From positions 5,270-69,269 of the forward strand of contig JAQVNC010000003.1 in the NCBI GenBank assembly GCA_028703305.1: DNA of 64,000 nt, in the 5' to 3' direction. The notes under the pieces were generated by a model that was not told the origin of the DNA, searched no databases, and saw only the letters and a list, made by a program, of their open reading frames with translations. The translations under genes and the position numbers were made by a program. The stretch is from Patescibacteria group bacterium. GTDB lineage: Bacteria > Patescibacteriota > Patescibacteriia > Patescibacteriales > GWC2-42-12. Below are positions 48,842 to 51,892 of this stretch, piece after piece; position 1 is the first letter of the stretch; each line of letters starts with the position of its first letter.

Positions 48842-49162
48842 TCAACTCTTCTTAAAAGCATGAGAAGAGTTATGATGAGAATTTTGCCTGTCCAGCATTA
48901 AGCGATAGCCGCCGGCGCCATTATTAAGCCATAAAGCCACGCGCGCTACGGTCGTTGTGCTAACGCCCAGCTTTTTCGCGATTTCGCGGTACGGCAAGCC
49001 TATATTTACCATTCTGGCGATTTGCCAGCGTTCGCTCATCTCTCTTATTTCATCAATGGTACATAAATCACAAAAAAAAGACTCGGCTTCTTTTACGGTT
49101 TTTAAGCTAATTATAGCTTTAAACAATTTATCGGTTTTTTTATTAAATTTGAATTTTTCCAT
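48842..49162 (-). CDS. TrpR-like YerC/YecD-family DNA-binding protein
   Basis: FFCDLCTIDEIREMSERWQIARMV..G..YREIAKKLGVSTTTVARV is typical of YerC/YecD (Trp-repressor fold). Confidence 0.75.
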   Translation of the reverse strand: MEKFKFNKKTDKLFKAIISLKTVKEAESFFCDLCTIDEIREMSERWQIARMVNIGLPYREIAKKLGVSTTTVARVALWLNNGAGGYRLMLDRQNSHHNSSHAFKKS

Positions 49163-50155: not shown

Positions 50156-50183
50156 AAAAAACTCCCGGCGATCCCGAGAGTTT
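50156..50183 (-). terminator. rho-independent terminator 16 nt upstream of the cysK ATG (attenuator terminator candidate)
   Basis: Minus strand: aaactctcgg-gatcg-ccgggagttt-ttt. 10-bp stem with one G-U, followed by a T-run. Confidence 0.7.
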
Positions 50184-50208
50184 ATTGGCTGAAATATGGC
50201 TGATTGAT

Positions 50209-50298
50209 TTAACTACATAAGCTACAACAACCAACTCTCGAGATAAATACGAGAGTAGAGCAACAGAAATTTAATTTTACTATTATTGCTTTGTTCAT
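50209..50298 (-). CDS. 29-codon Cys-rich leader mini-ORF (MNKAIIVKLNFCCSTLVFISRVGCCSLCS)
   Basis: The ATG sits 6 nt after the -10 box, so it would be leaderless. 5 of 29 codons are Cys (CC, CC, C). It overlaps alternative hairpin segments upstream of cysK. Confidence 0.5.
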   Translation of the reverse strand: MNKAIIVKLNFCCSTLVFISRVGCCSLCS

Positions 50299-50304
50299 AG
50301 TTTT

Positions 50305-50333
50305 AATATATAGCTTGATTTTAGTCATGTCAA
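50305..50333 (-). promoter_or_regulatory. sigma70-like promoter (TTGACA-N17-TATATT) driving the Cys-rich mini-ORF and cysK leader
   Basis: Minus strand: ttgaca (50333-50328), exact 17-nt spacer, tatatt (50310-50305). Confidence 0.55.
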
Positions 50334-50498: not shown

Positions 50499-50882
50499 TT
50501 ATTTCGTTTGCCCTCTGATATACTGAAGACATAATGGCGATATTTCTTTTTCGATAAAAGAAATTATTTCGGTTCTTTCGCGTATTTGAGGATCAATCTT
50601 TAACAAACCCCAAAAAGCCGTCCCACGTATTGATGCTTCCATATCACACAAAAGCCGAAATAATGATTCTTCAAATCTTTTATCTCCTGTTTCTGAAACA
50701 AACCTCGCCGCTGCTAACCGTACTTTTTTAGAGCTATCGTTTTCGAGAATATTGATCAGAATTGTATCAATTTTCTCGTCTCTAACCCCTGCATGTTGAA
50801 GAATGTAAATTGCATCTTCACGAGCAATCGGATCAGGATCATCCATCTGTCTTTTTATGAGCCCCCAATCCACTTTTACCAT
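50499..50882 (-). CDS. HEAT-repeat (PBS-lyase-like) protein
   Basis: DPDPIAREDAIYIL, DSSKKVRLAAARFV and ASIRGTAFWGL helical-repeat signatures. SD ggaggg. Confidence 0.6.
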   Translation of the reverse strand: MVKVDWGLIKRQMDDPDPIAREDAIYILQHAGVRDEKIDTILINILENDSSKKVRLAAARFVSETGDKRFEESLFRLLCDMEASIRGTAFWGLLKIDPQIRERTEIISFIEKEISPLCLQYIRGQTK

Positions 50883-51396
50883 AAGACCCTCCTTCCAATA
50901 ATAACCTAAGTTCCTTTATTGTTTCATCGATATGATAGATTTGAATACCTACAAAGGGAATGTGAAAACCTTTCTGACGCATTAATTCCTTCAGCTCTTC
51001 AATAAAAATTCCTTGACCTCCTTGATAAGAGCCAGGCCGATTACCGGTTAGCCGCTTGACAGCGCAAGATGGAGAAAAATCTACCCCAATTATCACTTCT
51101 ATACTTTTGCCATTTTTAAGGAGCATCTCCATAAACCAAATACTCTCCATAGCAACCTTTCTGCAAATTCGATGATTTTCTTCAGTATCATATTTCGGTT
51201 TACCGCATGGTCTACGATTGAAAAAGTCAAATACCAATTCGGGGCACCTCATCTGAATAATGTTGACCTTATGTTCTATTAATAACTCAACGACTGGCGT
51301 TACAACTGAAGCATAATGCTTCACTATACCTGAAGCTCTCACTCCCTGCGCCAGCAAACAAAAAGGAACAAATACATATTTATGGCTTCTTATCAT
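50839..51396 (-). CDS. divergent DUF523/TudS-like Cys-motif protein
   Basis: Retains three landmark motifs in the order of the neighbouring DUF523 protein: PFCLLAQG, MRCPEL, FSPSCAV. SD gaggagg. Confidence 0.5.
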   Translation of the reverse strand: MIRSHKYVFVPFCLLAQGVRASGIVKHYASVVTPVVELLIEHKVNIIQMRCPELVFDFFNRRPCGKPKYDTEENHRICRKVAMESIWFMEMLLKNGKSIEVIIGVDFSPSCAVKRLTGNRPGSYQGGQGIFIEELKELMRQKGFHIPFVGIQIYHIDETIKELRLLLEGGSYGKSGLGAHKKTDG

Positions 51397-51439
51397 TACT
51401 TTTCCTCCTCTTTTTTAATTTTTGCTAAATTAAATATTA

Positions 51440-51892
51440 TTACAATTCTTCAATTTTGTCAATATTATTAATTTTTAATATTGCGGCAAGCACTCCGCAA
51501 CCTTTTATCTTTTTACCGTTAAATTCTCCCGAATATATTTTATTAACACCGCAAGAAGGACTGCCAGATTTTAATATAGCTCTTCTAATATTATGTTTTT
51601 TAACAACATTATTAAAAATAATTTTTGCTCCTTCAATAAATATTTTTGTATAATTATTTCCTTTTTTATCTATTACCAAAGCTTTACCATCCATAACATC
51701 AAAACCATTTCCGTTAACTATTTCGCACGCTGGTCTTGGAGTTTTTTGCCCAGCTGATATTTCCGGACAAACTAAAATAGAATTTCCTTCTAAAAATAAT
51801 TTTAGTGCTTTTTTATTTATTTTAACCTTTTTGTTATACCTACAAGGTATACCTAAAAGGCAAGCGCTTATAATTGTGTCATACTTTTTCAT
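51440..51892 (-). CDS. DUF523-family protein (TudS-type [4Fe-4S] thiouracil desulfidase family)
   Basis: ISACLLGIPCRYN, LVCPEISAGQKTPRPACEI, ILKSGSPSCG, GCGVLAAIL. Confidence 0.75.
   Translation of the reverse strand: MKKYDTIISACLLGIPCRYNKKVKINKKALKLFLEGNSILVCPEISAGQKTPRPACEIVNGNGFDVMDGKALVIDKKGNNYTKIFIEGAKIIFNNVVKKHNIRRAILKSGSPSCGVNKIYSGEFNGKKIKGCGVLAAILKINNIDKIEEL

Follow-up and report, generated by a model that had tools for sequence, protein, structure and literature searches.

Analysis of a 64,000-nucleotide (nt) stretch of contig JAQVNC010000003.1 from a Patescibacteria group bacterium (the whole stretch is referred to here as the window) revealed a leader directly upstream of the cysteine synthase gene cysK. 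The leader contains a short open reading frame (ORF) rich in cysteine codons, followed by RNA segments that can pair in alternative ways and by a predicted intrinsic terminator. With a probability of roughly 0.8, this leader is a ribosome-mediated transcription attenuator that responds to cysteine and makes cysK expression depend on the supply of charged tRNA-Cys; the evidence is computational throughout. The elements of the leader exist in the window and are conserved in related genomes, the antiterminator helix covaries, and masking of the first pairing segment shifts the calculated energy balance toward antitermination. Unless a locus name is given, coordinates refer to the minus strand of the window.

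A promoter scan located a -35 hexamer, TTGACA (50333-50328), and, 17 nt further on, a -10 hexamer, TATATT (50310-50305), which lies 6 nt ahead of an ATG at 50298. This ATG opens the leader ORF MNKAIIVKLNFCCSTLVFISRVGCCSLCS (50298-50209), which comprises 29 codons and a TAA stop codon (50211-50209) and is probably translated from a leaderless mRNA. Five of the 29 codons encode cysteine. The first Cys cluster, codons 12 and 13 (TGT TGC; 50265-50260), is the proposed sensing site. Segment 1 (actctcg; 50256-50250), the anti-antiterminator arm in the predicted folds, begins 3 nt 3' of this cluster and, by the predicted geometry, falls inside the footprint of a ribosome stalled there. Segment 2 (50241-50227), with the core CGAGAGTT (cgagagtt; 50240-50233) and pairing extended to 50227, can take either segment 1 or segment 3 as its partner. 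The second Cys cluster (50229-50215), identified from the sequence and the alignment, consists of codons 24 and 25 (50229-50224) and codon 28 (50217-50215). According to the pairing analysis, segment 3, AACTCTCG (aactctcg; 50182-50175), is common to the antiterminator (2:3) and the terminator (3:4). The predicted terminator hairpin, AAACTCTCGG-GATCG-CCGGGAGTTT (50183-50159), has 10 bp, five of them G-C pairs, a 5-nt loop and an energy of -13.8 kcal/mol, and its T-run (50161-50156) ends 16 nt ahead of the cysK ATG. An earlier note on this DNA had described the promoter, the five-Cys ORF, segments 1 to 3, the T-run and the cysK start, and all of them were found where it had placed them. The 10-bp terminator stem 16 nt ahead of cysK was likewise confirmed. 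The spacing of 5 nt that the note had given between the first Cys pair and segment 1 was corrected to 3 nt.

The gene downstream (50139-49249) encodes a protein of 296 amino acids of the CysK/CysM family. Its product scored 361.5 bits against TIGR01136 (NCBIfam cysKM; cut-off, 344.15) and also matched PF00291, which places cysK in the pathway of the amino acid proposed to be sensed. An exact-sequence look-up of the window CysK returned nothing, and a homology search found an NCBI protein with 100% identity from a metagenome-assembled genome (MAG) labelled "Patescibacteria group bacterium." A Shine-Dalgarno sequence is absent from the cysK start. The promoter scan detected no promoter-like site between the terminator and cysK, so that cysK relies on read-through.

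In the proposed mechanism, transcription would begin on the first nucleotide of the start codon (50298) or beside it, and with such a start a ribosome would load on the 5' end of the transcript without a Shine-Dalgarno sequence. When Cys-tRNA is plentiful, the ribosome would pass through the 29 codons, and segments 1 and 2 would pair in its wake. Segment 3 would then be left for segment 4, and the polymerase would stop at the T-run upstream of cysK. When Cys-tRNA is scarce, the ribosome would stall with a Cys codon of the first cluster in the A site and would cover segment 1. Segment 2 would take segment 3 once the latter has emerged, the terminator would be blocked, and the polymerase would enter cysK. 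In the window, segment 2 would have to capture segment 3 before segment 4 is made, which would make the decision a kinetic one. From the conserved elements we infer the transcription start, the translation of the short ORF, the stalling, and termination and read-through themselves.

Homologues of the leader were collected by CysK scans of genome and metagenome collections and by look-ups of the contigs that carry the closest CysK homologues. Thirteen further distinct loci carry a homologous leader directly 5' of a cysK ortholog. The identity of the encoded CysK to that of the window is 89% in L082, 88% in L081, 87% in L161, 86% in L162, 85% in L163, 84% in L165, 82% in L083, 79% in L001, 78% in L167, 75% in L169 and L177, and 74% in L173 and L178. 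The earlier note had named beforehand a lack of conservation ahead of orthologous cysK genes as speaking against an attenuator; the opposite was found. In the following, 14 leaders denotes these 13 plus the window, 15 leaders includes in addition the analogue L037 described below, and the near group denotes the nine closest leaders. The homologous leader ORFs at the 13 loci have 24 to 29 codons, and the peptides include MKKSTIKKVNFCCCTLAFISRVGCCCLCS, MRMTNNNSIPVCCCKSSIFLRVDYCRLK, MILLTLQTNVCCCPLVNVRRACCCN and MKKMAVQFSCCCALKTYVLRVHFC. A CC or CCC run is present at codons 10 to 15 in 14 of 14 leaders; the L037 leader has CC or CCC as well.

The genes 5' of the leader are unrelated between loci and comprise a HEAT-repeat gene, a divergent acetyltransferase gene, proS, dCTP-deaminase-family genes, a gene upstream of the L001 leader that we take from our own reading of the sequence to be IspG-like, and a transposase gene. 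The leader and cysK remain together despite these changes. A profile of the leader used with nhmmer matched once in the window and, across the 971 kb of sequence collected, nothing besides these leaders. Among 154 cysK loci scanned blind, short ORFs with Cys runs were found no more than 350 nt upstream of cysK at 8 loci on the sense strand versus 4 on the reverse strand. Short ORFs with CCC occurred upstream of cysK at 20 loci versus 5 occurrences elsewhere (about 1.9 Mb of scanned strand, all loci).

Conservation was calculated as mean pairwise identity by region, given here for the near group and for all 14 leaders, respectively. The N-terminal leader codons (0.62 and 0.47) and the spacer between the stop codon and segment 3 (0.54 and 0.42) diverge about as fast as the third codon positions of cysK (0.62 and 0.52). 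The Cys clusters (0.77 to 0.87 and 0.75), segment 2 (0.94 and 0.74) and segment 3 (0.91 and 0.83) form islands of identity, and the T-run (1.00 and 0.95) is the most conserved element of the leader. Because such islands occur only at the Cys codons, segments 2 and 3 and the T-run, the alignment indicates that the sequence of the leader peptide as such is not under selection, and that selection acts instead on the Cys codons, on the central pair of RNA segments and on the U-tract.

Covariation of the 2:3 helix was analyzed on a MAFFT alignment of the 14 leaders (A2). The helix keeps standard pairs in 93.5% of the alignment cells, versus 26 to 53% when the columns of the 3' partner are slid by 1 to 3 positions, and none of 500 column shuffles matched the observed pairing or covariation score. 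Pairs 65-136 and 66-135 change from C-G/G-C to A-U/G-U in the lineages of L167, L177, L169 and L173. RNAalifold, run on the alignment without any structural hint, predicted the 2:3 helix alone. Much of the pairing is maintained through G-U pairs, and this indicates that the constraint acts on RNA and not on a DNA palindrome. Across the leaders, pairing of segments 2 and 3 ties up between 6 of 6 and 8 of 10 nt of the terminator arm.

A terminator was predicted in 15 of 15 leaders, with a hairpin of -7.6 to -13.8 kcal/mol followed directly by 4 to 7 U residues. The 3' arm of the window terminator, CCGGGAGTTT, lies in another register than the corresponding arm of the relatives, CCCGAGTTTT; terminators were therefore scored sequence by sequence, and a column-wise covariation analysis of the 3:4 helix was dropped. 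The 1:2 helix has an energy of -10 to -11.5 kcal/mol in the window and in most relatives, where it begins 3 nt past the first Cys cluster. Taken together, the 13 homologous leaders, the compensated 2:3 helix and the hairpin with U-run in each leader support the attenuator layout of the trp/his type that the earlier note had proposed.

The spacing of the promoter and the start codon supports a leaderless transcript. Of the 13 homologous leaders, 11 have TTGACA (in one case TTGACC) 16 to 17 nt 5' of a hexamer resembling a -10 box. The gap between the -10 hexamer and the ATG is exactly 6 nt in eight leaders, namely, the window, L081, L082, L083, L161, L162, L163 and L165, and the bases within it vary (aaaact, aaaacc, gagatt, tttagt, aaacta, aaaatt, aatatt and tatatc). 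In these eight leaders, the order TTGACA, 17 nt, -10 box, 6 nt, ATG is thus constant despite the varying intervening bases. With a 6-nt gap, the usual sigma-70 geometry would put the +1 position on the A of the ATG. The constancy of the gap, in the face of its changing bases, supports a leaderless mRNA in the window and the seven relatives. The proposal of a leaderless start is supported for these eight leaders; in four others (L001, L167, L169 and L177), the gap is 9 to 12 nt. Even this distance is too short for a Shine-Dalgarno sequence.

Translation of this kind is plausible in the organism, since a Shine-Dalgarno-like motif was found 4 to 20 nt upstream in only 10 of 56 long ORFs of the window and since proS shows the arrangement TTGACA, 17 nt, TAGAAT, 8 nt, ATG. 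Several window genes have a -10-like hexamer 0 to 8 nt from the ATG. These data suggest that initiation in this genome is often leaderless or independent of a Shine-Dalgarno sequence. A genome-wide leaderless signature, sought in the position of -10-like hexamers ahead of the other genes of the window, was set aside as too noisy at this A+T content, proS being the only clean case.

Calculations within the window address whether the ORF and the complementary segments could have arisen by chance in intergenic DNA rich in A/T. At 30% G+C, short ORFs and hexamers resembling promoter elements turn up often, and the 3 kb between 48500 and 51500 contain 11 promoter-like sites versus 8.7 expected. The leader promoter matches 11 of 12 consensus positions and is the best sigma-70-like site in this region. 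The 161-nt leader folds at -39.9 kcal/mol, compared with -24.5 ± 3.4 kcal/mol for shuffled sequences (z = -4.5; 0 of 200 shuffles), and its minimum-energy fold includes the 1:2 and 3:4 hairpins. The best upstream complement of the 5' arm of the terminator is segment 2 (-15.0 kcal/mol), a value equalled by none of 500 dinucleotide shuffles. Cysteine accounts for 1.15% of the residues in the long ORFs of the window, so that at least five Cys codons in 29 are expected with P = 2e-5. Besides these shuffle tests of folding and complementarity, the comparative data already contradict an origin by chance, with conservation at 13 loci in islands far above the neutral rate and with the excess of CCC short ORFs upstream of cysK (20 loci versus 5 elsewhere in about 1.9 Mb). 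We therefore regard such an origin as having a negligible probability.

Rfam was searched in a permissive scan of the region and in a scan of the whole window at gathering thresholds, and neither gave a credible match. The best match, STnc180, reached 18.5 bits against a threshold of 50; it was driven by the terminator and was discarded. A T-box (RF00230, including the conserved AGGGUGGNACCGCG box) gave no match in the window even at E values up to 10 and was found in sister loci only. No tRNA gene was detected in the window.

To evaluate the switch, the 15 leaders were folded with constrained energies, with a ribosome mask of about 15 nt on each side of a codon of the first Cys cluster. In 14 of 15 leaders, the unmasked RNA prefers the 1:2 plus 3:4 conformation by 1.6 to 12.6 kcal/mol. 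With the mask in place, the balance is displaced in favor of 2:3 by about 1 to 10 kcal/mol in 15 of 15 leaders (by at least 3.8 kcal/mol in 13), and the antiterminator is then equal or favored in 9 of 15. The minimum-energy fold under the mask flips to the antiterminator in the four closest relatives tested and not in the window. Without segment 4, a situation that arises in the course of transcription, all of the masked leaders inspected (the window, L082, L167, L178 and L037) form 2:3. In the window itself, the terminator stays ahead under masking, which qualifies the reading proposed in the earlier note.

Several observations weigh against an attenuator of this kind. The 10-bp terminator of the window is still favored by 5.2 kcal/mol under masking, from which it follows that the switch in the window must be kinetic, through co-transcriptional trapping of 2:3, and no polymerase pause site was identified. 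In L167 and L177 the 1:2 helix is re-registered, and in L001 and L173 it is weak; at fixed register, it pairs in 80.6% of the alignment cells, and its covariation is not above the shuffle control. The compensatory changes in 2:3 come from about four diverged lineages and thus represent few independent events. The leaders with a gap of 9 to 12 nt between the -10 hexamer and the ATG are not strictly leaderless. The second Cys cluster lies just 3' of segment 2, and a ribosome stalled there would cover segment 2 and favor termination, which does not fit the simple attenuation model. This cluster is nevertheless kept (identity, 0.87), with CC or CCC in 10 of 14 leaders and at least one Cys in the others. 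It may sharpen the threshold of the response, or it may persist for the sake of RNA pairing, and it might implement a two-threshold logic, unlike in classical attenuators. Finally, the case for an attenuator was built entirely in silico.

Three other explanations assign a function to the leader. A translational attenuator of the mycobacterial type, in which a stall in the Cys tract opens a structure that blocks cysK initiation and termination is not involved, has a precedent in the leaderless polycysteine short ORFs that work in this way in Mycobacterium smegmatis (10.1101/834739). A hairpin does lie near the cysK start, and cysK initiation could be sensitive to nearby structure because the gene has no Shine-Dalgarno sequence. 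However, the hairpin is followed directly by 4 to 7 U residues in all 15 leaders, and the T-run shows the highest conservation of all elements, in keeping with an intrinsic terminator. Ahead of the cysK ATG, a stretch of 16 to 25 nt is rich in A/U, shows little conservation and stays unpaired in the predicted folds, and the Cys tract and the cysK start region do not pair. Translational control of this type is thus rather improbable. The short ORF could also encode a functional Cys-rich micropeptide, for example, one that binds metal or sulfur, with its own promoter and terminator and with incidental read-through into cysK. Conservation of the ORF, of its Cys residues and of an S/R-R-V/A motif would fit such a peptide, as would the strong promoter and terminator. 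Against it, the 10 to 11 N-terminal codons evolve like cysK third positions (0.62 versus 0.62), and the "SRV" codons, which do not vary even at synonymous sites, fall on the RNA segment showing covariation with segment 3. In addition, within the sequence collected the element was found solely ahead of cysK, which has no promoter of its own, and the L037 leader combines an unrelated peptide with the same RNA layout. A micropeptide is therefore very unlikely.

A similarly low probability is assigned to the view that a protein or a ligand binds the repeats and that no ribosome takes part, for instance, as an operator for the TrpR-like YerC/YecD protein or as an unrecognized riboswitch. The sequence TCTCGAGA in segment 2 is a perfect DNA palindrome, and in the window as well as in five related loci cysK is followed by a TrpR-family gene. 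This gene is absent, however, from the leader-bearing loci L163, L167, L169, L173 and L177, and the repeats lie 45 to 125 nt 3' of the promoter. The helix is kept by G-U pairs and compensatory changes, which are relevant in RNA only, and Rfam holds no matching family. Binding without a ribosome would also give no reason why an in-frame ATG, tandem Cys codons and a stop codon are conserved.

Further loci carry comparable arrangements upstream of cysK. In L037, from a Parcubacteria MAG whose CysK shares 46% identity with that of the window, an unrelated leader, MKTFKNQLICCCCCEL, and a terminator show the same four-segment layout. Segment 2 of L037, GGTTGGTTTTT, almost duplicates segment 4 and forms an 11-bp complement of segment 3 (-11.6 kcal/mol; 0 of 500 shuffles). 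On the basis of its sequence, we interpret L037 as an independent analogue of the window leader. In the sister loci L084, L175/L176 and L002 (CysK identity, 73 to 75%), the short ORF is absent and a T-box-like leader occupies the equivalent position (L084:2221-2436, L175:405-635 and L002:2426-2560), ahead of cysK or of a ParB-like gene and cysK. These T-box-like leaders scored 39.5 to 42 bits (E of about 1e-7), below the Rfam gathering score of 93, and contain a AGGGUGGAACCGCG box. T-boxes of the candidate phyla radiation (CPR) may thus be missed at the Rfam default threshold. The leaders of L084 and L175 share a conserved GGGGUUGCGC, in which UGC is a candidate Cys specifier codon. T-box and poly-Cys leader appear interchangeable within the cysK clade, and the presence of two sensors of tRNA charging at one gene in one clade provides strong circumstantial support for the function of the leader.

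Leader-peptide attenuators are classically known from the trp, his, thr, leu, ilv and pheA systems of Proteobacteria and from trp and ilvB of Actinobacteria. The leader described here resembles them in its short ORF with tandem codons specifying the amino acid that is the pathway's end product, in four segments that pair as 1:2, 2:3 or 3:4, in an intrinsic terminator directly ahead of the biosynthetic gene, and in the proposed masking of segment 1 by a stalled ribosome. It differs from them in the amino acid, which is cysteine, in a short ORF that is apparently leaderless and lacks a Shine-Dalgarno sequence, and in its host, a member of the Patescibacteria (CPR). Furthermore, its Cys codons form two distinct clusters, of which the second lies immediately 3' of segment 2; a ribosome terminating at the stop codon would sit too far downstream to cover segment 2, and no Rfam leader family resembles the leader in sequence.

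In mycobacteria, leaderless polycysteine short ORFs regulate cysteine genes, including Rv2334A ahead of cysK1-cysE (Canestrari et al. 2020, 10.1101/834739). The two systems share a short ORF with consecutive Cys codons, which is probably leaderless here too, a position ahead of cysteine genes that include cysK, and the sensing of charged tRNA-Cys through ribosome stalling, which is proposed here. Mycobacterial control, in contrast, is translational and acts by unmasking a ribosome-binding site; the Cys tract is C-terminal and pairs with the Shine-Dalgarno sequence of the next gene, and there is no terminator/antiterminator pair (10.1101/834739). In the window, the first cluster lies in the middle of the ORF, and a hairpin with U-run is combined with a covarying antiterminator. 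The mycobacterial architecture was not found here: cysK lacks a Shine-Dalgarno sequence, its start region is unpaired in the folds, and the regulatory structure is a terminator. Canestrari et al. stated that attenuation by an upstream ORF (uORF) was not known for cysteine (10.1101/834739).

A cysteine uORF with a terminator has, however, been predicted ahead of cysS in Rhodobacterales. For this element, uORFC-8-2, which has two tandem Cys codons at about positions 14 to 15, two stems and a 3' U-run, the predicted mode of action is ribosome-mediated transcription attenuation that responds to Cys-tRNA (Brewer et al. 2021, PMC8632094). It resembles the window leader in the similar position of its tandem Cys codons and in its terminator. 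It differs in that it regulates cysS, is confined to alphaproteobacteria, has a single Cys cluster and has not been described as leaderless. Its Cys codons form part of the first stem, whereas here they are located 5' of segment 1 and outside the 1:2 stem. The two are set apart by description; no Rfam model matched the window. In Actinobacteria, short ORFs with runs of Cys codons were predicted ahead of cys operons and cbs (Seliverstov et al. 2005, PMC1262725). For these, unlike for the present leader, no terminator hairpins were reported, and the authors suggested a mechanism that depends on Rho (PMC1262725). The T-box (RF00230) likewise senses tRNA charging, but it binds the tRNA directly and does not need translation.

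The element thus shares the idea of a leaderless poly-Cys sensor with mycobacteria and the combination of Cys codons and terminator with uORFC-8-2, but lacks the defining features of both families. We describe it as a leader-peptide transcription attenuator that is new with respect to host phylum, target gene and combination of features. A literature search for leader-peptide attenuation in Patescibacteria returned no papers. The novelty claimed in the earlier note stands insofar as no report for cysK or for this group of organisms was found; it is narrower than claimed, because the Rhodobacterales cysS uORF with its intrinsic terminator had already been predicted (PMC8632094). Within the literature that could be searched, a cysteine leader peptide with an explicit, covarying terminator/antiterminator ahead of cysK is apparently unreported, and this would be the first.

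Relatives of archaeal label (Woesearchaeota and MAGs labelled "Methanosarcinales") have poly-Cys mini-ORFs of their own: MKHTINFRCCC (L003:2462-2497), MINGICCCR (L006:2828-2857) and MKRNREINKKNITKKLVSYSCFCCC (L004:2889-2966; L004 is the same as L085). The mini-ORFs of L003 and L006 start 22 to 23 nt past a TATA-like box (TTTAATAA or TTTAAATA) and look leaderless from this spacing. They are followed by T-runs without a hairpin, upstream of a gene for tRNA-Cys, a ParB-like gene and cysK. By eye, the two leaders are alike near the TATA-like box and just past the stop codon. The L004 mini-ORF has tRNA-Cys on one side and cysK on the other. When folded, the archaeal mini-ORF regions showed no structure above that of shuffled sequences (z = +0.5, +1.3 and -0.9). 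It is conceivable, though doubtful, that the poly-Cys leaderless mini-ORF is a regulatory module that travels with the cysK clade across domains. If the archaeal mini-ORFs do sense Cys-tRNA, they would be archaeal leader-peptide attenuators without a terminator hairpin, of which we know no described example.

A tRNA gene, which we take from its GCA anticodon to encode tRNA-Cys, adjoins cysK in many loci (L006:2887-2959, L004:2733-2857, L009, L175:2034-2105, L171:2436-2508, L084:3459-3530 and L002:3948-4019). In the archaeal loci, it is located directly 5' of cysK and contains an intron in L004 and L009. In the Patescibacteria loci, it is located on the opposite strand just 3' of cysK and is followed by cysS in L171 and L175. 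In this way, cysK, tRNA-Cys and, in part, cysS are gathered in a compact "cysteine supply" locus. Another recurrent neighbor of cysK is a small ParB_N-like gene (PF02195), which adjoins it in L169:2388-2774, L175:699-1088, L177:1265-1651 and L003 (about 2574-2990) and is fused to it in P0036 and P0072. In L178 (508-672), about 140 extra nt separate the leader terminator from cysK and carry a long A/T-rich inverted repeat (ccacaaat...atttgtgg).

Upstream of the leader, the stop codon of a small HEAT-repeat gene, assigned by family match, is located at 50501-50499. It is followed by a hairpin and T-run (GGTGCCA, 13 nt, TGGCACC, TTTTTT; 50487-50451) that, by its sequence, is predicted to insulate the leader-cysK unit from upstream transcription. 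The earlier note had recognized this terminator; the hairpin, with a 7-bp stem and a 13-nt loop, and the T-run are present, and the terminator scan did not flag them because the loop exceeds 8 nt. The frame of the leader ORF is open upstream to an ATG at 50532, giving 107 codons (50532-50209) that run across the promoter and the preceding terminator and overlap the end of the HEAT-repeat gene. A family search with this extension gave no match. Since, in addition, the upstream genes differ at the homologous loci, the extension is probably an accident, one that gene callers might annotate.

Two genes for TudS-like 2-thiouracil desulfidases (51440-51892 and 50839-51396) and the HEAT-repeat gene are located directly 5' of the leader (50499-51892). 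At L169:2869-3891, a HEAT_2 gene and a 2-thiouracil desulfurase gene likewise adjoin cysK. The TudS-like genes may supply cysteine synthase with sulfide from thiolated bases. Downstream of cysK lies a TrpR-related gene of the YerC/YecD type (TIGR02531, 85 bits; 48842-49162), which is also found in L081, L161, L162, L165 and L001 and is often followed by hisI and hisG. The G+C content is 45.5% for cysK, 39.6% for the window and 30% for the leader, and the closest CysK relatives come from Patescibacteria, from DPANN-type archaea and from a MAG with the label Bdellovibrionales (L001). The G+C content of cysK and the scattered distribution of its closest relatives suggest lateral transfer of cysK, or binning or label errors.

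Little is known about gene regulation in the Patescibacteria, most of which are uncultivated and whose genomes are reduced. For this group, a conserved attenuator implies that CPR bacteria couple transcription and translation, initiate translation on leaderless transcripts and tune cysteine synthesis to the charging of tRNA-Cys, instead of relying on a host alone. The exchange of T-box and poly-Cys leaders between sister lineages offers a natural comparison of two sensors of tRNA charging that replace each other at one locus. For the annotation of metagenomes, the leader provides a compact signature: TTGACA, 17 nt, -10 box, 6 nt, ATG, then CC(C) codons and a terminator.

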